From an uncultured Chloroflexia bacterium (lineage in GTDB: Bacteria > Chloroflexota > Limnocylindria > QHBO01), in assembly GCA_963767985.1 (NCBI GenBank), contig CAVYGE010000006.1, forward strand, positions 774,334 to 838,333: a stretch of 64,000 nt of DNA, read 5' to 3'. Position numbers and translations under genes: made by a program. The notes beneath the pieces are model-generated. The model had not been told where the DNA came from. It saw nothing but the letters and a program-made list of their open reading frames with translations, and did not search any database. Within the stretch, counting starts at the first letter, position 1. Each line of letters opens with the position of its first letter. Shown one piece after another: positions 17,590 to 48,891 of the stretch.

Positions 17590-18432
17590 GCAGCGGCACC
17601 CGCATCTGCGTCATCGGCGACATCATCGGCAAACCCGGCCGCCTGGCGGTCATGCACGTGCTGCCGGACCTTCGTCGCGAGCTGGAGCTCGATCTCGTCA
17701 TCGCCAATGGGGAGAACACGGCGGCCGGCGCCGGCCTGACGCCGAGCCTGGCCGAGGAGCTGCTGGGCGGGGGCGTCGATGTCATCACCAGCGGGAATCA
17801 CATCTGGGACAAGCGCGAGATCTACGACTACCTCGACACCGGCCGCCCGGTCCTGCGCCCGATCAACTATCCCGACGAGGCGCCCGGCCGCGGCTGGCTG
17901 GTTCATCACGCGGAGGACGGAACCGAGGTCGCGGTGATCAACGCCATGGGCCGCGTCTTCATGAACCAGCTGGACTCGCCCTTCACCAAGCTCGACGCGC
18001 TGCTGGACGAGGCCGCAGAGCCGTTGCCGAAGATCCGCATTCTCGACTTCCACTGTGAGATCACGTCGGAGAAGAACGCCATGGGCTGGTACCTGGACGG
18101 CCGCGTCAGCGGCGTGGTGGGAACGCACACCCATGTTCCGACGGCGGACGCCCGAGTCCTGCCCGGCGGGACGGCGTACATCAGCGACATCGGCATGACC
18201 GGACCGCGCGACTCGGTCATCGGCTTCAGCCTCGAGACGGTCCTGCCGCGCTTCACGCGCCATCTTCCGACCCGATTCGCCGTGGCCGATGGGCCGGTTG
18301 CGTTCAACGCGGTGGTCATCACGGTTGATCCGGCGACGGGGTCGGCAAGCACCATCGAGCAGGTGCAGCGCCTGATCGAGGTGTACGGTGGAGTCCCGGC
18401 GAGTATATACGTATATACTCGCGAGGCAATGA
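17586..18432 (+). CDS. ymdB: YmdB-family 2',3'-cyclic-nucleotide 2'-phosphodiesterase (metallophosphoesterase). As sequenced it reads through in frame into miaA.
   Basis: [14 protein letters not shown]...GNHIWDKRE...[10 protein letters not shown] is a TIGR00282-type metallophosphoesterase. The expected stop TGA (18430-18432, overlapping the miaA ATG) is in the +1 frame. Confidence 0.75.
18399..18422 (+). repeat. 24-bp AT-rich perfect palindrome GCGAGTATATACGTATATACTCGC at the ymdB/miaA junction
   Basis: Reverse-complement identity over 24 nt. This is an AT-rich island in ~70% GC DNA, and its core TATATACGTATATA is unusual for this genome. Confidence 0.6.
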
Positions 18433-19361
18433 AGGGTCCGGGGCCCCTCGTCGCGGTCGTCGGGCCCACCGCCTCGGGCAAGACGGACCTGGCTCTGGCG
18501 CTTGCCACAAAGTGGCCGGTCGAGGTCCTCGTCGCCGATTCGCGACAGGTGTACCGCGGCATGGACGTCGGCACGGCGAAGCCGGATCACGACGCGCGCG
18601 CGCGGGTCCGGCATCACCTCATCGACGTCGTCGAACCCGGCGATGCATTCAGCGTGGCCCGGTGGGTCGAGCTGGCCCGGGCAGTCATTCCGGAGGTCGC
18701 CGAGCGGGGTCGGATCCCGATGGTCGTCGGCGGCACAGGTCTCTACATCACGTCACTGCTCGACGGCCACGACTATGCCGGTCAGCCGTGGTCACCCGAG
18801 GTCCGCCGTCGATTGACCGATGAGCTCGCGGCCGACGGGCTTGGCGCGATGGCGGCGCGGCTTGCGGCCGTCAATCCCGAGGTGGCAGCACGGACCGACC
18901 TCAGCAATCCGCGCCGAGTGCTCCGTGCCCTCGAGCGCGTCGACGCCGGAGGTGGGGGAGTGCCCGTCCACAACATGCCGTACGCGGGACGCGTGGCCAT
19001 GATCGCCCTCACCCGGCCGCGCGCCACGCTTGCCCGGCGCATCGACGAGCGTGCCGCGTGGCTGTTCGCGCATGGGCTTCTGGACGAAGTGCGGCGCCTG
19101 ATGAGTGGGGGGACCGCCGCGGACAGTCATCCGATGACAGGTCACGGATATGCCGAGGCGGCTCGCGTCCTGGCGGGGGAATGGTCGCTCGAGGAAGCGG
19201 TTCGGGTCACGGCGGCGCGCACCCGCCAGTACGCGAAGCGCCAGCTCACGTGGTTTCGGCGCGATCCGCGGATCGTGTGGATCGCGGCCGGCGACCGCCC
19301 CGGGGACGACCCGAGCCTCGTGGCCGAGGCCGACCGCGTCCTTCGCGCCGCGCTCAGTTGA
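18429..19361 (+). CDS. miaA: tRNA dimethylallyltransferase MiaA
   Basis: [26 protein letters not shown]...VADSRQVYRGMDVGTAKP...Walker A and the DMAPP-binding loop. The ATG at 18429 is in frame with ymdB. Confidence 0.85.
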   Translation: MKGPGPLVAVVGPTASGKTDLALALATKWPVEVLVADSRQVYRGMDVGTAKPDHDARARVRHHLIDVVEPGDAFSVARWVELARAVIPEVAERGRIPMVVGGTGLYITSLLDGHDYAGQPWSPEVRRRLTDELAADGLGAMAARLAAVNPEVAARTDLSNPRRVLRALERVDAGGGGVPVHNMPYAGRVAMIALTRPRATLARRIDERAAWLFAHGLLDEVRRLMSGGTAADSHPMTGHGYAEAARVLAGEWSLEEAVRVTAARTRQYAKRQLTWFRRDPRIVWIAAGDRPGDDPSLVAEADRVLRAALS

Positions 19362-20956
19362 TGGTGGATAGACCCATCGACTCGCGCCAGGCGGCCACGC
19401 CAGCCGACGTCAGCTCGGGAACACGATGGACCGGCAACGCCTTCCGCTCGAGCGGTCCGGGCCGCCCCAGGTGGTAGCCCTGCCCATGCAGGATGCCAAG
19501 GGCAGTCAGTGGCTCCATCTGCGTCGCGTGCTCGATCCCCTCCGCGATGACCATGGCGCCGGTGCGCGTCGCGAGATCGACCACCGAGCCCAGCACGGCG
19601 CTGTAGCGGCCGTCGGACGCGCTGCGTTGGACGAGCGTCAGGTCGACCTTGAGGATGTCGAACCCGATATCGGCAAGCAGACGGAGTCCCGCGTTGCCGG
19701 CGCCGATGTCATCGGCGGCGAACCGGATCCCGAGGCGACGGCATGCATCGAGCCGAGCGCGCACGCGTTCGATGTCGATGAACTGCTGCTGCTCGGTGAT
19801 CTCGATCACCAGCCGGTCGCGACGGGAAGTCATGGCGTGCCAGGATGGCCTGGATGGCGGAGGCGCTGAACTCCGGCGCCTCGACGGTCGGTGGCGAGAG
19901 GTTGACGCTCAGGAACTGGTCGGCCGGCAGCCCTCCGGCGTTGGCCACGATCGTCTCGATGCAAGCGAGGTCGAGCGCCGAGAGCCGGCCACCGGCCTCG
20001 GCGGCGGCGAACAGCGAACCCGGGTTGTCGAATGGGGCAGGCGGGAGAGGTCGGATCAGGCCCTCGACACCGACCGTTCGGCCGTCGACCAACGACACGA
20101 TGGGCTGGAACACCGCTCCGAGGTGACCATGCGCGATGACCTGTGCCACGGCCGCTGCCGCTGAGGTGGCATCGGCGGGGGAGTCGGATGCCGTCGGGGA
20201 GAAGACGACGATGTCGGTGCGGCCGCCGCGCTTCGCCGCATACAGCGATGCGTCGGCCTGGGAGTAGAGCTGCGCGGCGGACTCCGCGAATGCCGGCAGA
20301 CCCGAGATCCCGCAGGAGAACGAGATCGGCCCGGTGTCCGAGTGGCCGGTCGAGGGCTGCAGCGTCTGGGCGAGGATGCGTCGCATGACGATGCGCGCAC
20401 CTTCGGGATCGGTGTGTGGCAGGAGAACCGCGAACTCGTCACCACCGACCCGATACGGGCGGTCGGCGAGGCGCAGCCCAGCCGGGATCAGCTCACCCAG
20501 CGCCCTGAGGACGCGGTCTCCGGCTGCGTGGCCCTGTCCGTCGTTGATGGCCTTGAACTCATCGAGGTCGATGAGCGCCAGGGCCAATGGCGTCTCGTAG
20601 CGCAGCGAGGCCGCCACCTGCCGCTCGAGCTCTTCGTGGAACGCGCGATGGTTGCCGAGGCCGGTGAGTGGATCGCGGAGTGCGTCGGCAACCGCGGCCT
20701 CGTACCGCAGCTGAAGGTCGGCATGGACGTCCGCAAAGGGAGCCACCATGAGCCGCAGGGCGACGCCGGCGACCGCCATCGACCCGATCGCGGCGACGAT
20801 GACCGCCGCCAGCTCGTCCGGCCCGATGACGAGGAGTGCCAGGCGGTGCGACACGACGAACGCGCCCAGGGCGCAGACGAAGCCCAGGGCGAAACGCCCG
20901 GCCAGCCCGGACGGCAACCCCCCGATTCGCGTGGCGCCGGCACGAGCGTGCTTCAC
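19354..20956 (-). CDS. Membrane-anchored GGDEF-EAL protein (diguanylate cyclase / phosphodiesterase), with a frameshift near 19800
   Basis: TM segments, then a GGDEF domain (RVGGDEF) and an EAL domain (EGLIRP...). The C-terminal EAL part continues in ORF 19354..19833. The start is uncertain (GTG 20956 chosen). Confidence 0.65.
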
Positions 20957-21092
20957 CTGGTCTCCGATCAGGCTCCAAATGCCCCCAGGCACGTGGTTAT
21001 CGCAGAATTGGTGCTTGTGCGCACCCGGACGTTCGTACCCCAGAGGAAGCGTGGGGCGCCACGAATGCATTCCGCTACCATTGGTCGAACAG

Positions 21093-22391
21093 ATGTCCGA
21101 ACGCGCACGCATGATCGACCTCACCACCGCGGTCGAGCGCGCCTTCCTCATCGGCCTCGACGACCCGAACGACGATCGGTGGCCGGTGCAGCGCTCGCTC
21201 GCGGAGCTCGGTGCCCTGGCCGAGACGGCCGGGGCGAGCGTCGTCGGCTCGGCACATCAACGGCGTCCGAGCCCGGACCCGGTGTGGTACTTCGGGAAGG
21301 GCCGGGCTGCCGAGCTGGTGGATGAAAAGGCGGCCACCGACTTCAACCTGCTGATCGTCGACGACGAGCTGGCGCCGAACCAGCAGCGCAGCCTCGAGAA
21401 ACTGCTTGACTGCAAGGTCCTTGACCGGTCCGCGCTGATCATCGACATCTTCGCCCGCCATGCCACGACGAAGGAGGGGCGCCTGCAGGTCGAGCTCGCC
21501 GCGCTGGAGTACCACCTCCCGCGCCTGACGCGCATGTGGACGCACCTTTCGCGCACGGGTGGCGGCATCGGGACCCGGGGTCCGGGCGAGAGTCAGCTCG
21601 AGACGGACCGTCGCCTCATCCGCGAGAAGATCAAGAAGGTCAAGGCCGATCTTGCCGATGTCGAGCGACACCGCAGCACGGCCGCCCGCAATCGCGATCG
21701 CAACGAGGTTGCGACCGTGGCCCTGGTCGGGTACACGAATGCCGGCAAGAGCACCCTGCTGAACGCCCTGGCCGATGCGGATGTCTACGTTGCCGACATG
21801 CTGTTCGCCACGCTCGACCCCACCAGCCGCCAGGTCTCGCTGCCGAACGGGCAGCGCGTCGTGATGACCGATACGGTCGGATTCATCAACAAGCTCCCGC
21901 ACGACCTGGTCGACGCGTTCCGCGCGACGCTCGAGGAGGTCCGGCGCGCCGACCTCCTGCTCGAGGTCGTCGACGCGGCCGATCCGGACTTTGTCGGCCA
22001 GCAGGCCGCCGTGCAGTCCGTGCTGGACGAGCTTGGAGCAGGGGACAAGCCGCGGATCACGGTCTTCAACAAGATCGACCGGCTGGCCATGGACGCCAGC
22101 ACCGCGCCCGCGACCGACCAGGCTGCCTTTGCCAGCGCCATCACCGGGGCAGGTCTTCCCGAACTGCGCGAGCGGATTGCCGATGCGCTGCGTGGCCAGA
22201 TGGTCGCGGTTGACGCCGTCGTGCCGTACGAGCGAGGCGAGCTCGTGGCCCGCGCTCGATCGAGTGGCGAGGTCGAAGAGCGCTACGAAGAGCGCGGGGT
22301 GCGCGTCAGCGGCCACCTTCCGCAGGGCATGGCGGCCGAGCTCACCGCGGCCGGGCGCAACGGTCGGCGTCGCCCCGACGCGTCGGGCTGA
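21093..22391 (+). CDS. hflX: GTPase HflX
   Basis: HflX N-domain followed by a G-domain (GYTNAGKSTLLNAL...DTVGF...NKID). Start chosen at MSERARMIDLT. Confidence 0.9.
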   Translation: MSERARMIDLTTAVERAFLIGLDDPNDDRWPVQRSLAELGALAETAGASVVGSAHQRRPSPDPVWYFGKGRAAELVDEKAATDFNLLIVDDELAPNQQRSLEKLLDCKVLDRSALIIDIFARHATTKEGRLQVELAALEYHLPRLTRMWTHLSRTGGGIGTRGPGESQLETDRRLIREKIKKVKADLADVERHRSTAARNRDRNEVATVALVGYTNAGKSTLLNALADADVYVADMLFATLDPTSRQVSLPNGQRVVMTDTVGFINKLPHDLVDAFRATLEEVRRADLLLEVVDAADPDFVGQQAAVQSVLDELGAGDKPRITVFNKIDRLAMDASTAPATDQAAFASAITGAGLPELRERIADALRGQMVAVDAVVPYERGELVARARSSGEVEERYEERGVRVSGHLPQGMAAELTAAGRNGRRRPDASG

Positions 22392-22399
22392 GCGTCACG

Positions 22400-23782
22400 T
22401 TGTCGATGCTTCCCGAGCTCCGCGAGGAGCTCCTGGCGATGACTGCGCGTGAGCTCGCAGCCGCTGAGGCGTTCTACGCTCGGTGCGCCGCGGATCCGAA
22501 GCTGGACCGGGAGCTCGATCGGCGCCTGGCTGGCGCCGCCACTCCCCTCATTCGCGCGCTCGCAGACTGGGAGGAGCCGCCAGCGGAAGGTTCCGCACTC
22601 CTGGCGGTCAACGAGGCCAACGTTCAACGCTTCTCGGAGCTGATGGCGGAATCGGGCTCCTGGCCAGGCCTGCGCGCTGTTGGTGCCGATGGCGCCGATG
22701 CCGCCTGGATGCTGGCGCAGCATGCGGACCGGGACAATGAGCTGCGACGGGAATGGCTGACGACACTTGCCGATGCGGTCGTCACCGGTGACGCCGACCC
22801 GCGTCACCTCGCGACGCTGGCCGACCGCGTTGCGGCCGTCGCCGGCGAGCCCCAGCCGTACGGCACGATTGCCATGTTGGCCAACGACGGCGAGGTGGAA
22901 TACCCGCTGCCGGTGGCCGATGCGGCCCGGCTCGACGAGCGGCGACGAGCCATCGACCTGCCATCACCGGCTCAGGACGCCCCGTTCCTCTCCGAGGGCG
23001 ACCTCATCCCCTATGGCCAGGACCGCGGATCCGTTCCGGTCAACCTGTGGCCGATGGTCCTCGAGGGCCACGTGTCGATCGAGGCGTGCCTCGAGGCCGG
23101 CGTCCGACGGGTGCGCCGCATCTGGGCTACACGCCCGGGGGACCGGCGCCTGGGACGACTTCGTGCACTCGCGCGAGAACGGGGCGTTCTGATCGAGCAG
23201 GTCGGATCCGAGATCATCGACGATGTGGCATCGGGCCGCAGCCATGGGGGTGTCATCGCGCTGGTTGGCGCGCGGACCGAGATCGGGGTCGGCACGCTGC
23301 TGGCCGAGGTGGGGGAGGGATCGCTGATCGTGATGCTGGATGGCATCGAGGATCCGTTCAACTACGGCCAAGCGGTTCGGGCGCTATACGCCGCGGGCGT
23401 CGGCGGGCTGGTCGTCCGCAGAAGTTGGGAGACGGCATTGGGAACGGTCACGCGCGCGTCGGCCGGCGCCACCGAGCTGATGCCGACGGCTCGTGCGGAC
23501 TCAGCCGAGGCGGCCGCGGAGGTCTGTCGTCGTGCGGGGATGCGCATCGCGGCGGCGGTCGCATCGGACGATGCCCTCGAGGTCACGCAGATCGATCTGT
23601 CGGGCGGACTATTCGTGTTGATCGGTGGCGAACGCCGCGGCGTGACGCGATCCTTCGTGGAACAAGCCGATGTGCGGCTGAGGATCGGCTACGGGCGGGC
23701 TGCGGCGCCGGAGCTCGGCGCGGCGACCTCGGCCGCCATCATCGCCTTCGAGGCGCTCCGCCAGCGGACGCGCGAAGGCTAG
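22400..23782 (+). CDS. Two-domain protein: an uncharacterised N-terminal domain (~220 aa, possibly DUF6624-like) fused to a SpoU/TrmH-family RNA 2'-O-methyltransferase
   Basis: C-terminal GGVIALVGARTE...LIVMLDGIEDPFNYGQAVRALYAAG...LIGGERRGV fits a SPOUT methylase. N-terminal ...DAAWMLAQHADRD... The join is in frame. Confidence 0.65.
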   Translation: MSMLPELREELLAMTARELAAAEAFYARCAADPKLDRELDRRLAGAATPLIRALADWEEPPAEGSALLAVNEANVQRFSELMAESGSWPGLRAVGADGADAAWMLAQHADRDNELRREWLTTLADAVVTGDADPRHLATLADRVAAVAGEPQPYGTIAMLANDGEVEYPLPVADAARLDERRRAIDLPSPAQDAPFLSEGDLIPYGQDRGSVPVNLWPMVLEGHVSIEACLEAGVRRVRRIWATRPGDRRLGRLRALARERGVLIEQVGSEIIDDVASGRSHGGVIALVGARTEIGVGTLLAEVGEGSLIVMLDGIEDPFNYGQAVRALYAAGVGGLVVRRSWETALGTVTRASAGATELMPTARADSAEAAAEVCRRAGMRIAAAVASDDALEVTQIDLSGGLFVLIGGERRGVTRSFVEQADVRLRIGYGRAAAPELGAATSAAIIAFEALRQRTREG

Positions 23783-24024
23783 AAGATCCGGCGACCTGCG
23801 AGGCGATCGGCACTTGGCCGACCGACGTGCGGGCGCGACAACCGGCGCCACACACGCTCTCGAATCGCCAGACCGGTCACCATGTAGAGACCGGCCAGCG
23901 ACACGACCAGGCCGTATCCGACCGCCAGAGGTCCGAGCTCGCCGCCGACGGCGGTGCCGCCGACCATGCCAAGGCTGCCCAGGGCCAGGCCGGTGATCGC
24001 AACTGACCAGAGTGTTGTTCGCAT
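23779..24024 (-). CDS. Small membrane protein (81 aa, two predicted TM helices)
   Basis: MRTTLWSVAITGLALGSLGMVGG...GYGLVVSLAGLYMVTGLAI. It is convergent with the TrmH-like gene (4-nt overlap). No family recognised. Confidence 0.4.
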   Translation of the reverse strand: MRTTLWSVAITGLALGSLGMVGGTAVGGELGPLAVGYGLVVSLAGLYMVTGLAIRERVWRRLSRPHVGRPSADRLAGRRIF

Positions 24025-24161
24025 GACGTGAGCCTACTCCGGGGTCGCGGCATGCTCAGATAGGACCTTCGTTCCGTACGGGCCATGACGTGGCGTCGCC
24101 CAGGACCGCCTGAGACTACTCAGTTCGTGGTCGTCAGCCACTTCCGCAAATGTACGTTATG

Positions 24162-25269
24162 TTATGTAGAGGCAGCAGACGGTGTGAGGCCGACGACGTT
24201 GCTGGCGCTCACAGGGCGGCTCAGGCCCTTGATGGCGAGCTCACCGACCGATTCCACCGCCACCAGGTCCTCGAGCATGCCGACGACCATCTGGCTGACC
24301 AGGATCTGGTCCGCGGCGGCCTGGCTGCTCAAGCGCGACGCCAGGATCGTGACGTTGCCGATGGCGCCGTAGTCATGGCGCCCCTCGAAGCCGATGCGGC
24401 CAAGCGTGGCATAGCCGACGGCGATCCCGACCCCGAAGCCGAGCTCGTAGCCGCGGCGGCGCCAGCCCGCGGAGAGCGGCCCGAACCGCTCACGCATGGT
24501 CACGGCCATGCGGACGGCTCGCTCGACGTGATCGTCCTGTGGGATCGGGTCGTTGAAGAAGATCATCACGCCGTCGCCGGCGAAGTGCTCGAGCGTGCCG
24601 CCGTACTCGGTGATGACCTCGCCCATCATCCGGTGATACTCGCCGAGGACGCCGAGCATCTCCTCGGGGTCGGCGCCTTCGGCGAACGTCGTGAACCCGC
24701 GCAGGTCGCAGAAGCAGACGGTGATCTGGCGGCGATGTCCGGACAGCATCTGCTCGCCCTCGCTGGATGAGATCAGCTGGGCGATCTGCGGAGACAGGAA
24801 TCGGCTGAGCTCCTCCTTCTGTCGCTCGATCGTGCTCGTCATGATCCGCTGCTGTTCGATGTACTCGAGCTCGAGATCGCGCAGCCGCTTGGCCGCCAGG
24901 GACGCGTTCAGCCGGGCCTGGAGGATGCGAGGGTTGATCGGCTTGGTCAGGTAGTCGGTCGCGCCCAGCTCGATACAGCGGACGACGCTGTCCAGCTCCT
25001 CGACGCCCGAGACCATGAGCACCGGGATGTGGCGGATCGCCTCATCGGCCTTCATCGCTGCCAGCGTCTCGTAGCCGTCGAGCTCCGGCATCACGACGTC
25101 GAGCAGCACGATGTCGATGGCATCGCCGTGCGAACGCAGCAGCTCCATGCCCTGGGCGCCATTCTCGGCCTCCAGGACCTCGAGTCCGAGTCCGGTGAGC
25201 TGGCGTGCCAGGACCAGCCGGTTGACGCGGCTGTCGTCGACGACGAGCGCGATGCCGGTCTCGGTCACG
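24162..25269 (-). CDS. Response-regulator receiver domain fused to a class III adenylate/guanylate cyclase
   Basis: REC domain (ALVVDDSRVNRLVLARQL...LDVVMPELDGYETL...VLMVSG) followed by a CYCc domain (ITVCFCDLRGFTTFAE...FAGDGVM...YGAIGNVTILASRL). GTG start overlaps the Hpt stop (GTGA). Confidence 0.85.
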
Positions 25270-25642
25270 CGCTGTCCCCGTCGGCGATCCACGCCCGCAG
25301 CGCCTCGGATGTCGCCTCCCACTCCGAGCGGACTCGCGCTGCGGCTTCCTCCCCCGCTCCTGCCAGTGAACCGGAACGCGCCGCCATCTCGAGCTCGCGT
25401 GACGTGCCGGCCAGACGGGCCGCACCCACGGTGGCGCTGCTCGACTTCAAGGTGTGCGACGGCCGCACCATCCCCTCTGCGTCATCGGCGGCGCGCGCCG
25501 CCTCGATCGCGGCGACGTGCGTGCCGCCATCGGCGAGGTAGGCTTCGATCAGCTCGACGACGAAGCCTCGGTCACCGTCGACGGACGCGCGAAGCTCGTC
25601 GAGCGTTCCGGCGTCCAGCGTCGGGGTCTCTGGGTCGCTCAT
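25266..25642 (-). CDS. Hpt (histidine phosphotransfer) domain protein
   Basis: 125-aa protein with the Hpt signature HTLKSSSATVGAARL. Confidence 0.8.
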
Positions 25643-25655
25643 GGCTTGCTTCCTT

Positions 25656-28600
25656 TCACCCTGCGGGCGTTCTTGGGGCTCGCGCCAGTGCCGCAGCGAG
25701 CTCGGCCGGCCGGATCGGCTTGCTGATGTAGTCGTTCATGCCCGCGGAGATGCACGCTTCGCGGTCGCCGGCCATGGCGTTCGCGGTCATGGCGATGATC
25801 CAGACGTCGCGATCGGCCAGCTCAGCGCGGATGCGACGCGTCGCCTCGAGACCGTCGAGCTCCGGCATCTGCACGTCCATCAGAACCACGTCGTAGGGCC
25901 CGCGCTCGACCGCCGCTACGGCCTGGAGGCCGTCCTCGGCCAGGTCGATCTCGTATGCCAGCTGGCCCAGGAGTCGCTTCGCGAGCTTCTGGTTCACGGG
26001 ATTGTCCTCGGCGAGGAGGATCCGAAGCGGATGACGCTCACCGAGCGGTGAGCCGTCGGTCTCGACCGGGATGGGCGGCGAGATCTCGACCGACGCCCCG
26101 AGCAGGATGGTGGCGATCGTGTCGTGCAGGGCTGATGGCTTCACGGGCTTGGCCAGCCAGGCGGAGATGGCGTCGCTTTCGCGGTCGCGAAGGCCGATGG
26201 ATGACAGGATCACGACCGGCATCGGCGCGGCCTCGCCGGTCAACCGCTTCACCTCGTCGGCCAGCTCGAGCCCGTCGCGCTCCGGCATGAGCAGGTCGAA
26301 GAGTGCGATCTCGAAGTGCTCACCGGCGCGGAGCCATGCGATGGCCTCGCTCGGCTGTCCGGTCTCGCGCGGGATCATCCCCCACCGAGCTGTCTGGGCG
26401 ACCAGGATCCGGCGGTTCGTGGCGTTGTCGTCGACGATCAGGACGCGACGCCCGCTCAGGTCGGCGTCGAGCCGCGCCGGACGGCTCGTTGCCACCGCAT
26501 CGTCGGACGCGACGGGCATGCGAGCCACGAGACGGAAGGTACTCCCCTCCCCCGCCACGCCGCTGCTCTCGGCGTTGAGCGACCCGTCCATGAGCTCCGC
26601 CAGGCGACGGCTGATGGCGAGCCCCAGTCCCGTGCCGCCATATCGGCGTGCGATCGAAGCATCCACCTGGCTGAAAGACTGGAAGAGCTTGCCCATCTTG
26701 TCGGGCGGGATGCCGATGCCGGTGTCCCGGACGTCGACGCGAAGCTCGCAGCGCGCGGCTCGCTTCCGTCCGTCGCCGGGCTCGGTGGTGCCGCCCACGG
26801 TCACCACGACCTCGCCCTGTTCCGTGAACTTCAGCGCATTCGACAGCAGGTTGAGGATCACCTGGCGCAGGCGGCCGGCATCGCCGACGAGGTTCGCCGG
26901 CAGGTCGTCGTCGACCGCATAGACGAGCTCGAGGCCCCTCGAGGCGGCCGCCGGAGCCAGGATGTCGAGCGAGGCTTCGATCGCGTCGCGGAGGACGAAG
27001 GGCTCGCTCTCGAGATCCACGCGACCGGCCTCGATCTTCGAGAAGTCGAGGACGTCGTTGATGATCGTGAGGAGCGCGTCGCCCGAGGTCCGGATCGTCT
27101 CGGCGAAGTCGCGCTGCTCGTCGTCGAGGCGCGTATCGAGCAGCAGGCCGCTCATGCCGATGATCGCGTTCAGCGGGGTTCGGATCTCGTGGCTCATCGC
27201 CGCGAGGAAGCTGCTCTTCGCCTCGTTCGCCTGCTCGGCCACCGCCTTGGACTCGGTCGCATCGCTGAACAGGCGTGCGTTCTGCAGCGCGATCGCTGCC
27301 TGCTGGGAGAGGCCCGTCAGGAAGCTGAGGTCGGCGGTCGTGAACGGCCGGTGCTCGGTATCGCGCCACACGGCGAGCACACCGGCCACCTCGCCCTGGA
27401 CGATGAGCGGGGCCGCCATGAGCCGGCCGTTGTCGTCGCCGGTCCCGGCGATGTGCTCGGTCCGCTCGTCATCGGCGGTGCTGTTCACGACCTCCGCCTT
27501 GCCGGTCACCGCAACCGTCCCCACGATCCCCTTCCCGCGCGTCACGGGATCGGCCTTGACCTCCTCGGCCACGGTGCCGACCGCGATGACGCCCTCAAGG
27601 GTGTCCGCATCGCCCTGTGGCAGGTAGAGCGCGCTGGTGTCGGCGTCGAGCAGCGTCTGCGCCCGGTTGGCGATGAGCTCGAGGACGACCGACAACTCGA
27701 GGGTCGCCGACATCTCTCGCCCGACGTCGGCCAGTGCCGCCATCTCCTCCGCCCGCCGGCGCGTCTCGTCATACAGCCGGGCGTTCTGCACGGCCACCCC
27801 GACGTTTGCCGCAATGGTTGCCAGCAGGCGTGCATCGGACTCGTTGAAGCGTCCCTCGTGCTTCGTGCTCTGCACGCTGATGACGCCGATGACCCGGTCG
27901 CCGGTGAAGACCGGCACGCCGAGCCATGACTTGGCGCGGGTTCCCGTCCCGCGCTGGCCCAGGGCCGTCCAGTCAGCCTCTCGATTCAGGAGCAATGGCT
28001 GGCGGCGCTCGATCACCCGCGATGTGAGGCCCTCGCCGAGCGCCAGAGGCTCCTGTTCCTGCGTCGCCCCCTCCTCGGCGTAGTACGGGAAGTCGATCTT
28101 GCCGCCTTCCTGGTCGACCAGGGCGACGTAGGCGATATCGGCGTCGAATGCCTCACGTGCGCGCTCCCCCACCACCGCGAGCAGGGGCTCGACCTCGAGC
28201 TGCGCGGTGATCGCCTCGCCGACGTCGTTGATCGTTCCCAGCTCGGAGACGCGGCGACGCGTCTCGTCGAGAAGCCGCCCGGTCCTCAGGGCGACGCTGA
28301 GGCTCGCCGCGATGGTCGTCGAGCAGGGAGACGTCGCGCTCATCGAAGGCGTACTCGCGGTCCAGGTTCTGGAGCGACAGGGTGCCGAGTACTTCGTCGC
28401 CCAGGCCGATGGGGACGAACACCGCCGACCGCGCGGCTTCGCCCACCAGCTGAGCGGGCTGACCCAGCTCGGCGGCACGCGCCTCGAGGTCGTGCGTGAC
28501 CACGATCGGCTCGCGCGTCGCGCGAACATGCCGGCGAAAGCCGATGACGGGACTCGGGTGATCCGCGAATGCGCTTGCCCCGTTCCAGCACGAACGGGAA

Positions 28601-31535
28601 GTGCATGCGGTCCTCGTCGGGGTCGAAGATCGCAATATCGACGACGTTCGCGTCGAAGACGTCGCTGGCCCGCTCGCCGACCAGCTCGTACATCGACTGG
28701 ATATCGAGCTCCGAGGAGAGACCGCGCTGGATGCTGTTCACGATGGCGAGCTCGGCAGCGCGCCGCTTCGTCTCGTCGAACAGCCGCGCGTTCTCGAGCG
28801 CGACGCTCAGGCTCGCGGCGAGCGTCGTGATGCAGCCGGATGTCGCCATCTCCGAAGGCATCCGCACGATCGAGGTTCTGGAGCGAGATTCGGCCTCGTA
28901 CCTCGCCGCCCGAGACGAGCGGCGCGATGAGGATCGCCTTCGGCGCCTCGCCCTGGACTGAGGGTGAAATTCCGAGCGACTCCTGCCACGCGGGCACGTC
29001 GATCACGTGGAGCGGCTGTCGGGTGCGCATCACCTCCGTGGTCACAGGCGAGCTCTCGATGGGCGTCGGCTCGTCGGGGAACCGCACCCCACGCTCGATC
29101 GTGTACGGGTAGCGCACGAGACCCGCCTCGCGGTCGATGATGCCGATGTCGACGACCTGGGCATCGAAGATCTCCCGGATCTTGTCTCCGACCAGGTCGT
29201 ACATGGCCTGCATCTCGAGGTTCTGAGCGAGCCCCTCCTGCACGCTGTTGATGATCGCCAGCTCGGCGGCACGCTCGTCGGTCTCGACGAGGAGCCGCTT
29301 CGTCTCGTCGAACAGCCGCGCGTTCTCGAGGGCCACGCTCAGGCTCGCGGCGAGGGTCGTGAGGAGCCGGAGATCACTCTCCGAGAAGGCGTTCGTACGG
29401 TCCAGGTTCTGGAGCGAGATCCGCCCGCGGACCTCCCCACTGGCGACGAGCGGGGCCATGAGCACCGACTTGGAGGCCTCTCCCTGGACGACCTCGACGC
29501 TGCCGTGATCCGCCTCCCACGCCGGTACGTCGTTCAGGAGGAGCGGCCCGCTCTCCAGCATGAGGTTGAAGAACCGGGACCCGTCCAGGGAGGTGGGCTC
29601 ATCGGGGTAGCGGACGCCGCGCTCGATCGAATACGGATAGCGCAGGACGCCCGCCGGTCGATCGATGATGCCGATGTCGACGACCTGGGCATCGAAGATC
29701 TCCCGGATCTTGTCTCCGACCAGGTCGTACATGGCCTGCATCTCGAGGTTCTGCGCGAGCCCCTCCTGCACGCTGTTGATGATCGCCAGCTCGGCGGCGC
29801 GTTCGTCGGTCTCGGTCAGGAGGCGCTTGGTCTCGTCGAAGAGCCGTGCGTTCTCGAGCGCCACGCTCAGGCTCGAGGCCAACGTCGTGAGAAGCCGGAG
29901 GTCGCGCTCGGTGTAGGCGTGCGTCCGATCAAGGTTCTGGAGCGAGATGCGGCCACGAACCTTGCCGCCGCCCATGAGAGGCGCAAAGAGGCCTGACTGC
30001 GGGTGCTCGCCCTGGACGATTGTGTGACCGGCATGCTCGCGCTCCCAGACGGTGAAGTCCGGGATCGACAGTGGCTGACGAGTCTCGATGAGGTGGGTCA
30101 GGATGGCGGAGTCGCCGAGCTCGTTCGGCTGATCCGGGAAACGCTCGCCGCGCTCGATGGTGTAGGGGTAATGGATGCGCCCGTCACCGTCGTCGATGAC
30201 GCCGATGTCGAGCACCTGAGCGTCGAAGATCTCGCGCATCTTGTCACCGACGAGGTCGTACATGGCCTGCATCTCGAGGTTCTGGGCGAGCCCTTGCTGG
30301 ACGCTGTTGATGATCGCCAGCTCGGCGGCCCGCTCGTTGGTCTCCACCAGCAGCCGCTTCGTCTCCTCGAACAGGCGCGCGTTCTCGAGCGCGACGCCCA
30401 TGCTGGACGCAAGCGTGGCGAGCAGGCGTTCGTCACCATCGCTGAACGCGTGGGCCTCCTCGCGTTCGATGCTCACCACGCCGAGGACGCGATCGCCGGC
30501 CGGGATCGGGACGCCGAGCCATGAATCGCTCTGCGCTTCGTCCCCCTCGAACCGCCCCTTGACGACGGGCTGGTGCTGAGCCATCTCGTCGCTTGAGGCG
30601 ATGCGCAGTGGCGCTTTCGAGCGGATGACCTCCGATGTCAGTCCGGGTCCGAGCTCGAACGGCTCGAACGGGATCGGCGTGCCGCGGTCGAAGGCGTACG
30701 GGATCGTGATCTGGCGCGTCGACTCGTCGTACAGGGCGATGGCGACCGAATCCGACTCGAAGACCGCACTGATCCGGTCGCCGACCAGGCTGATGATGAC
30801 GTCGAAGTCGAGCTGCTTCGCGAGCCCGGTGCCGATCTCGTTGATGAGCGCCAGCTCCGCATTGCGCTGCCGGGTCTCCTCGATCGCGCGGGCGCGCGTC
30901 AGCGCCGTCGCGATGTGCTGCGCCACAAACGTCAGGAGTTCGAGGTCGCGACGGCCGTGGACGCGGTCCTCACGGTAGCTCTGGATGACGACGGCGCCGA
31001 TCGTCCGCTCATCGGCCCGCAACGGCGCACCCATCCAGTCGACGCCGAGCACTCCGATCATCTCCGCGTCTCCGCGCGAGACGATCTGCCGGTATTCGTC
31101 CTGCGTCCAGAGCTCGGGCTTTCCGTGTCGAAGGAGATAGGCCGTCAGGCCGGCGCCTTCTCCCGAGCCGATCGGCTCCCACAGGTTGGGATCGGGCACG
31201 TCGAGATCGACCTCGTCGCGGTAGAACGGAAAGTTGATGAGCTGACGCCGGTCGTCGTACAGCGCGATGAAGAAGTTATCGGCGTACATCAGCTCGCCCA
31301 CGATCTCGTGGATCGCCGCGTAGAAGGCGGGCATGTCCGCCGCGGCACTGGCCGTCTCCGCGATGCGGTAGAGGGCCGCCTGGACGCGCTCGGAGGACTC
31401 CGTGGCTCGCAGCCGCTCTTCCAGCTCCCTGATGCGCTCGCGGGCCGTGTCGAGCGCGATGCCATCCGAACCGGTATGTGACGGGTTCTCGGTGGCGGCT
31501 ATGGGATCGGTCCTCCTGCCAGCCGTGCGGCCCAT
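25656..31535 (-). CDS. Giant hybrid sensor histidine kinase: about 8 tandem GAF modules, HisKA, HATPase_c and two C-terminal receiver domains. There are internal frameshifts around 28150-28900.
   Basis: A 1959-codon ORF. Repeated modules ...[34 protein letters not shown]...GAF...RISLQNLDR... C-terminal HisKA ([13 protein letters not shown]), HATPase (GTGLGLAI) and two REC domains ([11 protein letters not shown]...; [11 protein letters not shown]...[14 protein letters not shown]). Between roughly 28150 and 28900 the long frame yields Arg-rich junk while the other two frames carry GAF sequence. Confidence 0.8.
28600..30440 (-). repeat. Tandem near-identical ~530-bp repeats (coiled linker + GAF module) inside the histidine-kinase gene
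   Basis: Example: 29161-29370 and 29691-29900 are >95% identical at the DNA level, and further copies lie near 28630 and 30220. Confidence 0.8.
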
Positions 31536-31630
31536 GGGTCATGGGTGGGCCCTGCGGCGCGGCTATTGTGCGCGAACGACACCTCGGCGTCGAGGTGATC
31601 GTGACACCGCCAGCCGGGCGATGGAGCTGG

Positions 31631-33559
31631 CTATCGGGCGCTCTTGGCCGCCGCCGCCGCGACCTCGTCACTCACGACGCCAACTCCTCCGAGCACCATG
31701 AGTGCCCCGGGCTTGATCCGCCGCAGCTGGCTCGCCGTCGGAGCCGGCAGAGTCGTCGCCTTGACGAGGAGCAACGGGACGTTGCGTCGTGCCGCGGCCG
31801 GACCCCCGGCGAGCGCATCAGGGAAGGCTGTGCCGGTGGCGAGGAACGTTGATCCCAGGGATCCCGGAAACAGGCCTGCGACGGCCGCCGCCGTCGCGTA
31901 GCGGTCGGCGCCGGAGATCCGCGTCACGCTGCCGGCCGTGAAGGCGCCGAGGCGCTCGACCACGGCGTTCGACACCACGCCGATGCCCCCGAGGACCACG
32001 ATGCGTCCCGGCCGGATGCGGTCGAGCTCGCGCGCCGTGGCGGATGGCAGGTCGCCGGGCCGGGTGAGGAGCAGTGGGCTGGCAGTCCTCCCGGCCAACG
32101 GTATGGCGGCGAGCGCGTCGGGATAGTTCGCTCCCGTGGCGACGTAGGCGACCGAGATGCCCCGGGGCGTGCCCGCGACCGAGATCGCAGCGGCCGTTGC
32201 ATAGCGGTCAGGTCCGAACAGGCGGGTGACGCCGCCATTCGTGTGACCCTCGAGGCGCACCCTGACGGCTTCGCTGATCACCGAGGGTCCGCCAAGGACG
32301 ACGATCCGGCCGGGCCTGAGGCGCGCCAGCTCCGCCGACGTGGTCGAAGGCAGGCTGGTCGGCTGGGTGAGAAGCACTGGCGCCCCGTCACGAGCAGCAG
32401 CGGCGCCACCGGCCAACGCATCGGGATAGTTCGTACCGGTCGCGATGTACGCGACCCCGACACCCGGCTCGAACGAGGCGCGCGAGATGGCCGCGGCGGT
32501 GGCGTACCGATCCGAACCAGCAAGGCGAGTCACCCACCCCGGCGGGCAATGGACCGAGCCCTTGCCGATCGCGGTCCACGGACAGCCGGCGCTGTCCAGG
32601 GCGTGCATCACTGCGGGCATCGCACGCGCCGTCTCCGTGGGGATCATCTCGTCCGGCGGGTAGCGCCGGTCCGCGAGCTCCACCGTATAGCTGAAAATGC
32701 GATGCGCTCCGTACATCCAGTCGATCTGGTCACCATCGGTCGGATACAGCGCATGGGACTGCAGGCCCCGATATCCGGCTAGGCGCGCCATCTCATTGCC
32801 GATGGCTGCGAGCGTTGCGCGATCATCGGCGTCGGGGACGCCAGCCGCTGAGTGAGCCCACGGCCAGACCACCACGCGACCGTAGGAGTGGAACGAGAGA
32901 TGGATGCGGATCTGCTGCCGCCCGCCAATCACGCGCCCATCGACGAACTTCCTGAGCGCCGCGACCTCGGGTGCCGACCACGGCCGCCGACCGCGGTAGT
33001 TCTCGCTTGACGCTGAGCCGCTGGACCCTCCGCAGCAGCCCCACTTCCAGCCGTAGTTGCGGTTGAGGTCCGTGCCGACGGCTGTCGTTCCTGCGTTTGG
33101 CTGCCGGTTCTTGCGCCAGTCCCGATACGTCGGTCCCCCGCCATCGAATGTCGTGCCGTCGGGGTTCAGGTTGAACAGGATCCACGTCTCGCTGCCGTCG
33201 ACGCGCCGCCGCGTCGCTTCGCTGGAAGCGTACGTGGAGGTCAGGTGCTTGAGGACGGCCAGGGCCATCTCGACGCTCAGATGCTCGCGGCCGTGATGGC
33301 CGCCGTCGAGCAGGATCTCGGGCTCCGCCTCGTCGAGCGCGACGTTGTCGCTGACCTTTGCGATCCACAGGTCGCGGCCCTCGTGGCTGCGGCCGATCGT
33401 TGTGATCCGAACGAGTGACGGATGCGCGCGTTCGATGGCGCGTATGGCCGTCGTCAGCTCCTCGTAGGTGTGGTACCCGCTATCCGCGGGGGGAAATGCG
33501 TGGGCGACCTGCGTCGCCGGCCCAGCCAACGTCAGGCTCGAGATGATGACCAGTGACAT
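31631..33559 (-). CDS. Secreted M14 zinc carboxypeptidase with three C-terminal CWB2 cell-wall-binding repeats
   Basis: Signal peptide MSLVIISSLTLAGPATQVAHA. M14 motifs (HGREH, NPDG, ...SFHSYG). Three repeats of the GxDRYATAAAIS...VATGxNYPDAL type. Start set at the ATG before the signal peptide (33559). Confidence 0.8.
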   Translation of the reverse strand: MSLVIISSLTLAGPATQVAHAFPPADSGYHTYEELTTAIRAIERAHPSLVRITTIGRSHEGRDLWIAKVSDNVALDEAEPEILLDGGHHGREHLSVEMALAVLKHLTSTYASSEATRRRVDGSETWILFNLNPDGTTFDGGGPTYRDWRKNRQPNAGTTAVGTDLNRNYGWKWGCCGGSSGSASSENYRGRRPWSAPEVAALRKFVDGRVIGGRQQIRIHLSFHSYGRVVVWPWAHSAAGVPDADDRATLAAIGNEMARLAGYRGLQSHALYPTDGDQIDWMYGAHRIFSYTVELADRRYPPDEMIPTETARAMPAVMHALDSAGCPWTAIGKGSVHCPPGWVTRLAGSDRYATAAAISRASFEPGVGVAYIATGTNYPDALAGGAAAARDGAPVLLTQPTSLPSTTSAELARLRPGRIVVLGGPSVISEAVRVRLEGHTNGGVTRLFGPDRYATAAAISVAGTPRGISVAYVATGANYPDALAAIPLAGRTASPLLLTRPGDLPSATARELDRIRPGRIVVLGGIGVVSNAVVERLGAFTAGSVTRISGADRYATAAAVAGLFPGSLGSTFLATGTAFPDALAGGPAAARRNVPLLLVKATTLPAPTASQLRRIKPGALMVLGGVGVVSDEVAAAAAKSAR

Positions 33560-33776
33560 GGCCAGACGGCGTCGGCTGAACAGAACCCGCTCCCTCACGT
33601 GGCACGCAGTGGCGTCTACCGTACCCGCGCTGCGGCCAGGCGGAATAGCCATTTCGCGCGGCGAAGGCCGCGACGATCGCCCCGTCGGTACCAGTCCCGT
33701 GGGGTGACCTTGCGGCCATGCCTCGCCACCGATCGGGCCGTTGTCAATTGTCGGGAACGGTCGGCACGATGGGCGC

Positions 33777-35660
33777 ATGCCTTTTGCCCACCGTCGCCGC
33801 ACCCGGTTCATCCTTGCCGTCGTCATGGTCTGCTCCGCTGCCCTGCCCGTGGGCTTCGGCTCGCCCACCACTGCGGAGGCCGCCACCACGGTCCAACGCC
33901 TCAGCGGATCGGATCGCTTTGCGACCGCCGCAGAATTGAGTCGGGCGAACTTCGCCGCCGGCGTGCGCGTTGCCTACGTCACCACCGGATACAACTTCCC
34001 CGACGCGCTGGCCGCAGCGCCGTTGGCAACCAAGACCGGCGGGCCCATCCTGCTCGTGGCCGGCGGGTCGATCCCGGCAGCAACTCGCACCGAGCTGAGT
34101 CGGCTGCGGCCGCAGCGGATCGTGATCGTCGGCGGGCCCTCGACCGTCTCGGCGGCGGTCGCCTCGGCCCTGAAGGCCTACACCGCGGGAACCGTGAGCC
34201 GAATTCACGGAGCGGACCGCTTCGCAACAGCGGCCGCCGTGAGCCGGTCCTGGGGCAAGGGCGTCAGCGCCGTGTACATCGCCACCGGTCGGGCATTCCC
34301 TGATGCGCTGGCGGCGTCTGCCGCTGCTGCGCGGGGCCGGTTCCCGGTGCTCCTCGTCGAGCGCGACTCGATCCCGGCGGCGGTCAGGACCGAGCTGGCG
34401 CGACTCAACCCGCAGCGGATCTACATCGCCGGCGGCGCCGGCGTCGTGAGCGACGGCGTGCGTCGAGCCCTGGACGCCTACACCGCCGGACCGGTCGAAC
34501 GCATTGCCGGGGCGGATCGCTACGCCACGGCGGCCCAGATCAGCCGTCGGCACTTCGGGTCCGCTCCCGTGGCCTATCTCGCCACAGGCCTGAATTATCC
34601 GGACGCTCTGGCGAGCGCAGCCGTCGCCGGTATCAGGGGAGGTCCGGTCCTTCTCAGCGCCCCGACCTCGCTGCCGCGCAGCGTGTCCGACGAGCTGAAG
34701 CGGCTGAAGCCCGGTCGGGTGACCATCGTCGGCGGCCGCGCAGCCATCGGCGACGCGGTTCTCAACTCCGTCAAGCGGCTGTTCGGGCCGGTGGCGGTGG
34801 TTTCGCCAACGCCGGCGCCGACACCGAAGCCTGCCCCCACCGCGCCCCCGGCGCCACCACCCACGCCCGTCCCCACGGCTCCGGGTGGAGGTGGGTCCTC
34901 TGGCAGCCGGTGTCCCGTGGCGATGCCAGCTTCCGCACCGGCCGGCTGGACTCGCGCAACCACGAGCACATTCAGCGAGACGACGCCGCTCGGCAGCTGG
35001 CCCGGCCCCGTCGCCGCCACCCAGTGGAAGAACCGACAGGCCGGCGCCAAGGACTCGAGCGGACGCGGCACCTATGACTCGTCCCGCACCGTGAGCGAGG
35101 GCAATGGCCTGCTCGACATCTGGATCCATTCCGAGACGAGCAGCAAGCGCGGCGTCCACGATCCTGCGGGTCAACGCTACGTCGCGGCCCTCGTGTCGAA
35201 GCTCGGGGCGACGAAGGGAGCACGGATCTCGATCTGCATGCGCGCCGACACGATCCTCGGCTACAAGCTCGCCTACCTGCTATGGCCGAGCTCGGGCTCC
35301 GGGAACCAACTCGGAGAGATCGACTATCCCGAGGGCAAGCTGACAGGCCTGCCGGCCACCGCTCACGCCTTCATGCACTACGCGCCGAAGCCGTCGAGCG
35401 GCAAGCACCAGGACTGGTACGACAGCCTGGTGGCTCTCCAGGGCTGGCACGCCTACACCATCGAGTGGAATCCGAAGGCATCGACCCCGTACGCGAAGTT
35501 CTTCATCGACGGACGCCTGATCGGCCATTCGACGCGCTATGTGCCCACGGTGACGATGACGTACATCATGCAGAACGAGACGTACGTCGGAGGGCAGGCT
35601 CTTCCTGCACCGGCGCAGGGACACATCCAGGTCGACTGGCTGACCATCGACCTTCCGTAG
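33777..35660 (+). CDS. Secreted protein: signal peptide, three CWB2 repeats, a Pro-rich linker, and a C-terminal GH16 / concanavalin-like glucanase-type domain
   Basis: CWB2 repeats (GSDRFATAAELSRANF...TTGYNFPDAL x3), then PTPAPTPKPAPTAPPAPPPTP, then a beta-sandwich-like C-terminus (WNPKASTPYAKFFIDGRLIG...IQVDWLTI). It is divergently transcribed from the carboxypeptidase gene. Confidence 0.7.
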   Translation: MPFAHRRRTRFILAVVMVCSAALPVGFGSPTTAEAATTVQRLSGSDRFATAAELSRANFAAGVRVAYVTTGYNFPDALAAAPLATKTGGPILLVAGGSIPAATRTELSRLRPQRIVIVGGPSTVSAAVASALKAYTAGTVSRIHGADRFATAAAVSRSWGKGVSAVYIATGRAFPDALAASAAAARGRFPVLLVERDSIPAAVRTELARLNPQRIYIAGGAGVVSDGVRRALDAYTAGPVERIAGADRYATAAQISRRHFGSAPVAYLATGLNYPDALASAAVAGIRGGPVLLSAPTSLPRSVSDELKRLKPGRVTIVGGRAAIGDAVLNSVKRLFGPVAVVSPTPAPTPKPAPTAPPAPPPTPVPTAPGGGGSSGSRCPVAMPASAPAGWTRATTSTFSETTPLGSWPGPVAATQWKNRQAGAKDSSGRGTYDSSRTVSEGNGLLDIWIHSETSSKRGVHDPAGQRYVAALVSKLGATKGARISICMRADTILGYKLAYLLWPSSGSGNQLGEIDYPEGKLTGLPATAHAFMHYAPKPSSGKHQDWYDSLVALQGWHAYTIEWNPKASTPYAKFFIDGRLIGHSTRYVPTVTMTYIMQNETYVGGQALPAPAQGHIQVDWLTIDLP

Positions 35661-40187: not shown

Positions 40188-40208
40188 GACTCCCCTATCT
40201 TGCGCCCT

Positions 40209-46280: not shown

Positions 46281-48891
<2,611 letters not shown>

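Follow-up and report, generated by a model that had tools for sequence, protein, structure and literature searches.

Regulators that join a receiver domain to a nucleotide cyclase are a combination known from genome censuses, and a His-Asp-His-Asp relay running through a separate histidine phosphotransfer (Hpt) protein to a receiver-fused cyclic-nucleotide enzyme is known from Dictyostelium, where a hybrid kinase, the Hpt protein RdeA and RegA form the chain. That system is eukaryotic, its genes are unlinked, and RegA is a cyclic AMP (cAMP) phosphodiesterase and not a cyclase. A 64-kb stretch of DNA from an uncultured soil Limnocylindria bacterium (contig CAVYGE010000006.1; the whole stretch is called the window below) encodes an arrangement of the same kind on its minus strand, in three tightly packed, co-oriented genes for a hybrid histidine kinase, a stand-alone Hpt protein and a receiver-cyclase. 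These genes probably make up a three-gene phosphorelay of this Candidatus Limnocylindria bacterium, a reading that draws on their domains, order and conservation. It is a conserved phosphorelay of well-known modules in an uncharacterised combination, and three points stand out in it, namely the feeding of a class III cyclase by a separate Hpt, the His/Gly/Ile active site shared throughout the clade and a GAF array of variable copy number. Limnocylindria are abundant uncultured Chloroflexota of soil and freshwater in which, to our knowledge, essentially no signalling has been studied experimentally, and the triad would extend His-Asp-His-Asp relays to cyclic-nucleotide synthesis.

The functionally nearest known system is cyanobacterial CyaC. 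Like the window locus, CyaC of Spirulina and Anabaena (REC-GAF-GAF-HK-REC-class IIIb cyclase, with REC for receiver and HK for histidine kinase) combines GAF sensors, a histidine kinase and a receiver directly before a IIIb-type cyclase, and its intrinsic kinase is described as phosphorylating the cyclase-proximal receiver and thus activating the cyclase (summarised in PMC3009899). CyaC differs in being a single polypeptide with one-step His-Asp transfer and no Hpt, in having two GAF domains where the window kinase has eight, and in its canonical Lys/Thr/Asn/Arg active site. With three separate genes and an Hpt between kinase and cyclase, the locus is not a CyaC-type kinase-cyclase fusion. Kinase-like, receiver and cyclase domains are also combined in Dictyostelium adenylate cyclase R (ACR), one membrane protein whose DHp domain lacks the His and whose activity is independent of the phosphorelay (PMC3009899). 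Only CyaC, ACR and general reviews emerged from the literature searched, and no bacterial relay from a separate Hpt to a receiver-class III cyclase was found there.

On the kinase side, the core and receivers are best matched among NCBIfam models by BarA (E = 2.5e-124), TorS (E = 1e-119) and LuxQ (E = 2e-97), with ArcB also similar, and the Hpt protein is closest to LuxU and the Hpt domain of TorS; all these scores lie below the curated cut-offs and denote resemblance, not membership. The separate Hpt gene is a feature shared with LuxQ/LuxU. LuxQ, BarA, TorS and ArcB, however, are membrane sensors with one receiver and DNA-binding regulators at the end of the chain, whereas the window kinase is soluble, carries eight GAF units and two receivers, and ends on a cyclase. 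On the regulator side, PleD, WspR and DgcR share the layout of receiver, helical linker and cyclase fold, and no PDB entries match the full-length structure better than theirs (3bre, 6zxb, 2wb4); the receiver of the cyclase protein is most similar to that of PleD. Their output is a GGDEF diguanylate cyclase and not a class III enzyme.

The gene junctions were read directly from the DNA (GC content of the window, 69%), and Pfam identified all three genes, in line with a first-pass annotation of the sequence that had described three co-oriented, tightly packed genes and had named GAF, HisKA, HATPase_c, Response_reg, Hpt and Guanylate_cyc as the domains to look for; each was found in the expected gene. 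In the kinase, GAF, GAF_2 and GAF_3 matches fall in seven stretches (E = 1e-79 to 9e-97), followed by HisKA (residues 1439-1504, E = 5.5e-23), HATPase_c (residues 1551-1671, E = 7e-26) and two Response_reg domains (E = 3e-41). The second gene encodes a stand-alone Hpt protein, as had been proposed (PF01627, 50.8 bits against a cut-off of 24.6); it contains HTLKSSSATVGA, its phospho-accepting H63 lies in HTLKSS, and an exact-sequence look-up of the protein gave no match. The third gene, also as proposed, joins a receiver (Response_reg, E = 1.6e-25) to a class III cyclase (Guanylate_cyc, PF00211, 65.2 bits against a cut-off of 21.9). The Hpt stop TGA (25267..25265) overlaps the GTG of the cyclase frame (25268..25266), the DNA reading gcGTGAcc; the overlap had been recognised at first pass, with the cyclase start given as 25269, one base off. 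We place this start at 25268 because of the GTG overlap and because the orthologs, at 362-370 aa, and the genes called in related contigs agree with it. A longer open reading frame (ORF), 24162..25322 from the GTG at 25322 (386 aa), was rejected, since ortholog lengths and the conserved overlap favour 25268. The three genes are probably co-translated.

Table 1. Features of the kinase-Hpt-receiver-cyclase locus, with positions in the window.
Feature	Position	Strand	Remarks
Hybrid histidine kinase gene	25656..31535	-	Literal ORF 1959 aa; 1958 aa once three inserted bases are removed; Pfam, translation
Array of 8 tandem GAF units	27267..31397	-	Helical linkers between units end in NARLF(D/E)ET-like motifs
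Frameshift 1	28831	-	Inserted 'a' (ctgc[a]tcacg); DNA reading
GAF unit 6	28321..28832 (approx.)	-	Spread over three reading frames
Frameshift 2	28570	-	Inserted 'a' (gcgc[a]ttcgc); DNA reading
Frameshift 3	28320	-	Inserted 'g' (ctgctc[g]acgacc); original frame restored
HisKA/DHp domain	27024..27221	-	H-box SHEIRTPLN; phospho-His H1449 at 27189..27191
HATPase_c catalytic domain	26523..26885	-	N box, G1 DTGIGI, G2 GGTGLGL
Kinase receiver 1	26100..26450	-	Boundaries approximate; DD 1702-1703, D1747 at 26295..26297, S and K present
Kinase receiver 2	25686..26021	-	ED, D1887 at 25875..25877, T and K present; ED...MDVQMP...T...K pattern
Spacer, kinase stop to Hpt start	25643..25655	-	13 nt with AAGGAAG, ribosome-binding-site-like; then Hpt ATG
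Stand-alone Hpt gene	25265..25642	-	125 aa; Pfam Hpt
Hpt phospho-His H63	25454..25456	-	
GTGA overlap	25265..25268	-	Cyclase GTG start and Hpt TGA stop; junction read directly
Response regulator with class III cyclase output	24162..25268	-	368 aa; Pfam
Receiver domain of the cyclase protein	24894..25250	-	aa 7-125; phospho-Asp D57 at 25098..25100
Long helical linker, then short helices with FLSPQIAQL	24735..24893	-	AlphaFold 2 model, helix 113-157; aligns to the linker of phytochrome-cyclase 6fht
Class III (IIIb-like) cyclase catalytic domain	24186..24734	-	aa 179-361; sequence matches and Foldseek
His228	24585..24587	-	Position of the adenine-specifying Lys or guanine-specifying Glu; alignment
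Gly301	24366..24368	-	Second substrate-specifying position; Asp/Thr in adenylyl, Cys/Ser/Gly in guanylyl cyclases
Ile308	24345..24347	-	Replaces the transition-state Asn throughout the Limnocylindria orthologs; Asn retained in relatives beyond that clade

No phospho-acceptor residue has been lost from the kinase, the Hpt protein or the cyclase receiver, and the equivalents of CheY D/E12-D13, D57, T/S87 and K109 are kept in all three receivers. The kinase has the hallmarks of a hybrid kinase, namely the H-box His, the N, G1 and G2 boxes, fused receivers and a cognate Hpt gene. Fifteen other Limnocylindria-type loci (L001-L010, L012-L016; from L003 on, GTDB genomes) have their genes in this order, as do several Actinomycetota. 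The wider receiver-cyclase family with the 'FCDLRGFT' motif includes Actinomycetota, Xanthobacteraceae, Methylomirabilota, Binatia and others (L017-L082). From genomes, 80 loci of the family were fetched, and their six-frame ORFs were profile-scanned for the kinase core and for Hpt, receiver and cyclase domains. In 73 of 83 loci the cyclase is directly preceded by a co-oriented kinase core, and the others are mostly truncated contigs. Hpt was found in 24 loci, and each of these has exactly three receivers from the kinase core to the cyclase, of which the kinase carries two and the cyclase one; Hpt is absent from all 41 loci with one or two receivers, and among the 73 related loci it occurs only where the kinase bears receivers of its own. 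The HTLK[S/G] motif is kept in 23 of the 24 related Hpt genes (L057 has HGLKG). An [A/G]TGA overlap of Hpt stop and cyclase start is present in 14/16 Limnocylindria-type loci and recurs in L031, L034, L045 and L065, which are Solirubrobacteraceae, Ilumatobacteraceae, Actinomycetota and Caldimonas loci. A His-Asp-His-Asp relay is supported because Hpt co-varies with kinase-borne receivers and because the translational coupling of Hpt and cyclase is conserved, and these two patterns offer the strongest computational support for the predicted flow. The logic of the multi-step phosphorelay suggested at first pass holds up, with H1449, D1747/D1887, H63 and D57 all intact.

From these features we infer the direction of phosphate flow, the kinase receiver used and the mechanism of activation as follows. 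A soluble dimeric kinase would sense one or more cytoplasmic cues through its eight GAF domains, which helices connect into a spine that enters the DHp helix, and would autophosphorylate on H1449. The phosphoryl group would then move to one of the kinase's own receivers, most likely the C-terminal one (receiver 2, D1887), which is the likely donor to Hpt, from there to H63 of the Hpt protein, and finally to D57 of the response regulator. Phosphorylation of D57 is expected to change dimer geometry through the ~45-residue helix and a transducer element and so to switch the class IIIb-like cyclase dimer.

Some observations weigh against this reading. In eight related loci with three or four receivers Hpt went undetected, two kinase-borne receivers leave the phosphate route ambiguous, and a promoter and terminator scan of 23500..32200 returned zero sites, a result that is uninformative on operon limits at 69% GC. 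A different wiring could also be imagined, in which the DHp domain phosphorylates the cyclase receiver directly and the kinase receivers and Hpt serve as a phosphate sink or feed other regulators, or in which Hpt collects phosphate from other hybrid kinases. Direct transfer is the family's common mode, since most relatives (41 loci) pair a plain kinase directly upstream with a REC- or REC-REC-cyclase and have no Hpt, and two kinase receivers exceed what a minimal relay needs. The strict tie of Hpt to the hybrid form and the overlap of its stop with the cyclase start in distant phyla, however, are hard to explain unless Hpt and the cyclase regulator cooperate, and we regard the alternative wirings as improbable beside the His-Asp-His-Asp relay.

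In most relatives outside Limnocylindria (L018-L082), a REC-REC-cyclase protein follows a plain kinase (33 loci with two receivers). Receivers in tandem thus recur within the family, sometimes on the kinase and sometimes on the regulator.

The output domain was compared with solved cyclases. The AlphaFold model of the receiver-cyclase (mean predicted local distance difference test score 79.5) consists of a receiver, a helix spanning residues 113-157, short helices and the cyclase domain, and the linker with FLSPQIAQL resembles the cyclase transducer element of class IIIa/b cyclases. In layout the model agrees with the coiled-coil/transducer linkers of the phytochrome-cyclase 6fht and of REC-GGDEF regulators. 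In sequence and predicted fold, class IIIb enzymes come nearest to the catalytic domain: the best matches are Pseudomonas aeruginosa CyaB (3r5g, E = 1.4e-36), Synechocystis Cya2 (2w01, E = 3e-30) and Spirulina CyaC (1wc0, E = 6e-19). Among solved catalytic domains, CyaB and Cya2 are the nearest (38% and 36% identity), and Foldseek aligned the model to 3r5g with a TM-score of 0.83 and a root-mean-square deviation of 2.7 A. The regulatory domains differ, CyaB having MASE2.

Six functional positions aligned with CyaB and Cya2 read D188-H228-D232-G301-I308-R312. The metal-binding Asp pair is kept (D188 in FCDLRGFT, D232 in FAGDG) and invariant in relatives, as is the transition-state Arg in this protein (R312). 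At the first specificity position, the canonical Lys of adenylyl or Glu of guanylyl cyclases is His, and at the second there is Gly, so that the adenylyl code (Lys with Asp/Thr) is absent and the guanylyl code (Glu with Cys/Ser/Gly) is matched only by Gly301, the same second residue as in Cya2. The canonical transition-state Asn is Ile (IGNVTILASR against IGREVNLASR), which leaves the Arg of the Asn-Arg pair without its partner; in the model, Asn305 of the IGN sequence caps the N-terminus of helix alpha4. The pair is Lys/Thr in CyaB and Glu/Gly in Cya2, both with Asn, in contrast to His/Gly and Ile here. Ile308 is fixed: all 19 Limnocylindria-type sequences have it, as do the 120 metagenome proteins nearest to this one (YGAIGNV[VT]ILASR), whereas all 64 other members of the receiver-cyclase family have Asn. 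Nearly all members of the family carry Arg, His or Gln at the first specificity position, with Lys in only 3 genome loci. With His/Gly as the base-specifying pair and Ile in place of the transition-state Asn, the substrate is not readable from the canonical code. The first-pass annotation had given the output as cAMP or cyclic GMP (cGMP) and had proposed inspecting the substrate-specifying residues; that inspection found neither Lys/Asp nor Glu/Cys, and the claim is not established. The 'cAMP/cGMP' label should not be propagated from this assembly uncorrected, and with the canonical Lys almost never present, the code gives no prediction of nucleotide specificity for the wider family either.

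These substitutions bear on whether the domain is an enzyme at all, as Ile308 together with His/Gly could mean low or no cyclase activity. The Limnocylindria cyclase domain might be a pseudo-enzyme, a receiver-controlled dimer that binds a nucleotide or a partner protein, so that the relay output would not be a cyclic nucleotide. Such a role would agree with the exchange of Asn for Ile throughout the clade and not outside it, with the lack of either purine-specifying pair, and with the fact that no cyclic nucleotide (cNMP) receptor or phosphodiesterase gene was found in the 64-kb window, although receptors need no linkage to the cyclase gene. Both metal-binding Asp residues, the Arg and the glycine-rich motifs are nevertheless invariant at ~80% overall identity, the pattern of a working active site, and this invariance of the rest of the site argues for a functional enzyme. 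Loss of the Asn is also no proof of inactivity, because Mycobacterium avium Ma1120 naturally has Ala at this position (Ala164) and is an active adenylyl cyclase, whose A164N variant loses activity or is impaired (PMC4215837). Ma1120 is a distant relative (E = 5e-5) that has the canonical Lys/Asp and no receiver. On balance a pseudo-enzyme seems doubtful, and the predicted enzyme may be a slow or relaxed-specificity cyclase.

A more far-reaching and rather unlikely proposal is that the Limnocylindria receiver-cyclases, defined by Asp-His-Asp-Gly-Ile-Arg, form a functionally distinct class III branch whose phosphorelay-gated product would be neither cAMP nor cGMP (a cyclic pyrimidine or other nucleotide, for example), or which would be a nucleotide-sensing non-enzyme, driven by a core-genome kinase with a GAF array that varies from 5 to 12 units between species. 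Membership of a Pycsar anti-phage system, with a cyclase making a cyclic pyrimidine, can be considered effectively refuted. PADLOC PycC models match the cyclase domain (best E = 8e-19), but no better than the generic Pfam model does, and the solved PycC 7r65 gives E = 2e-4 where CyaB gives 1e-36. There is no adjacent cNMP-binding effector gene, the neighbours being Hpt, the kinase, SpoU and HflX, and the setting is a housekeeping one that is vertically conserved across the bacterial class.

The sensory part of the kinase is an array of GAF units of 166-178 residues each, of which units 3-5 share 67-76% mutual identity and are recent duplicates; the last linker helix continues straight into the DHp H-box. 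No convincing transmembrane segment was found in the kinase, as noted at first pass: over 19 residues the Kyte-Doolittle mean reaches at most 1.66, in a stretch that belongs to a GAF beta-strand. Covalent bilin attachment of the phytochrome or cyanobacteriochrome type is excluded, as none of the eight units contains a Cys, and the NKFDE motif of cNMP-binding GAF domains of the PDE2/5 and CyaB1/2 type (N[KR]...F...[DE][DE]) is present in 0/8 units. Comparison with PDB structures gave weak, non-discriminating matches (E >= 1e-8; the DevS/DosT haem GAF, Nlh1, CyaB2 and PDE5), with CyaB2 and PDE5 at E ~1e-7 and no better than the DevS/DosT haem GAF.

The number of units varies from 5 to 12 among orthologous Limnocylindria kinases, on a conserved kinase core and beside conserved Hpt and cyclase genes; the GAF array therefore expands and contracts. 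There are 5 units in L015 and L016, 6 in L014, 7 in L002, 8 in the window kinase and in L001, L003 and L008, 9 in L010, 10 in L006 and L012, and 12 in L013. The last of these (DASPUH010000084.1) is labelled Candidatus Sulfotelmatobacter (Acidobacteriota), while its locus organisation and motifs are nearly identical to those of the Limnocylindrales contig L012, and its label is likely a binning or labelling error.

The literal kinase ORF contains one irregular region. Residues ~975-1140 are an Arg-rich, out-of-frame stretch of ~170 aa that stands in place of GAF unit 6, and the real sequence of that unit is carried in the two other frames by ORFs 28340..28867 (-) and 28153..28635 (-), which is why Pfam detects seven GAF stretches and not eight. 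Deletion of the three inserted bases yields an uninterrupted 1958-aa kinase with eight regular GAF units. The ~1960-aa hybrid kinase with about eight GAF domains given by the first-pass annotation is therefore right in its domains and unit number, with the qualification that unit 6 is out of frame in the literal ORF; the three frameshifts had escaped notice at first pass. In a tblastn search with the intact kinase of L002, frames -1, -2 and -3 are matched in succession at 80%, 73% and 79% identity, and the shifted segment has no excess divergence (73-80% identity to L002 versus 79% for the remaining protein).

Comparable damage extends well beyond the kinase. At least eight further frame breaks within 27 kb affect CinA, the Mur ligase, pirin, RNase Y, a luciferase-like gene, the EAL gene and an M14-CWB2 gene, the last of which has two; between 14900 and 39700, breaks lie near 15750, 17393, 19800, 31960, 32200, 36215, 38308, 38900 and 39300. 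The Mur ligase has an in-frame TGA (38308..38310) inside a locally shifted stretch, and arithmetic on the coordinates of high-scoring segment pairs indicates that the breaks in neighbouring genes are mostly +1 events. Long-read contigs from metagenome-assembled genomes (L001, L005, L009) have breaks at other positions, whereas the short-read L002 (a k141 contig) is intact. This pattern fits an indel-rich long-read assembly. Because at least eight other frame breaks affect nearby housekeeping genes, the three insertions in GAF unit 6 are very likely assembly errors, and the real gene probably encodes an intact 8-GAF kinase.

The insertions, which the sequence as given does carry, might instead be real, and the gene a damaged allele in which ~170 Arg-rich residues replace GAF unit 6 or which yields no functional kinase. 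Three same-sign insertions that restore the frame without a stop are somewhat unlikely as random errors, and in only ~7% of comparable placements would the ORF stay open, a figure biased by the selection of this locus as a long ORF; this counts against an intact kinase and may be a sign that selection has preserved the frame of the kinase core. RNase Y, the Mur ligase, CinA and pirin are nevertheless broken in the same way nearby, the shifted segment is no more diverged than the rest, the short-read ortholog is intact, and two further +1 insertions to compensate for one are an unparsimonious evolutionary route, all of which makes a damaged allele improbable compared with assembly error. Proteins from this window need frame correction, and the 1959-aa kinase sequence should not be propagated uncorrected.

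Two other ORFs in the window have unusual composition. YmdB (17601..18383) and MiaA (18444..19358) share one open frame at 17469..19361 (+) with no intervening stop, and are separate genes in L002; a stop could have been lost through sequence error, or the fusion could be real. A PNPase-like ORF at 46281..48551 (-) has an RNase_T exonuclease domain (aa 142-295) at the expected position of the first RNase PH domain, which may reflect a frame-error fusion to the upstream gene or an unusual architecture.

The triad is widely conserved. Orthologs of the receiver-cyclase include more than 100 soil metagenome proteins at 79-91% identity (best match 91%), a range that indicates strong purifying selection, and the named orthologs are labelled Candidatus Limnocylindria or Chloroflexota. 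The loci share a housekeeping setting, with recA, recX, rny, ymdB, miaA, hflX and spoU on one side and pirin, Mur ligase, cinA, yajQ and ftsK on the other. The locus is likely a core regulatory circuit because of this class-wide conservation and its setting between the recA-rny-miaA-hflX and murE-ftsK groups. The gene immediately upstream of the kinase varies, being pirin in L002 and an M14-CWB2 carboxypeptidase in L001 and the window. A GGDEF-EAL gene (~19357..21100, -) and YajQ/DUF520 (39696..40208, -) are indeed encoded nearby, as the first-pass annotation had pointed out. The functional link that it hinted at was rejected as unsupported, since both lie several genes away among housekeeping genes, presence varies between relatives and GGDEF-EAL is missing in L002; these two genes are bystanders and not conserved partners. 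With a variable upstream gene and no GGDEF-EAL in L002, the conserved unit is the triad itself.

Several neighbouring features were also noted. In the GGDEF-EAL gene of the window, the GGDEF motif is intact and the EAL motif takes the variant form EGL, and a called 298-aa ORF in L001 (14242..15138) is antisense to the GGDEF domain, an artefact typical of high-GC DNA. Two divergent genes with cell-wall-binding (CWB2) repeats, 31631..33889 (-) and 33741..35660 (+), are inserted between kinase and pirin, one with an M14 carboxypeptidase and one with a GH16-like domain; L002 has neither and L001 only the carboxypeptidase. Downstream of the cyclase, after about 140 nt, the same strand carries a gene for a conserved 81-aa hydrophobic protein (23782..24024, -) with two membrane helices predicted by eye, 67% identity to the equivalent L002 ORF and no family assignment, which might belong to the operon or conserved unit.

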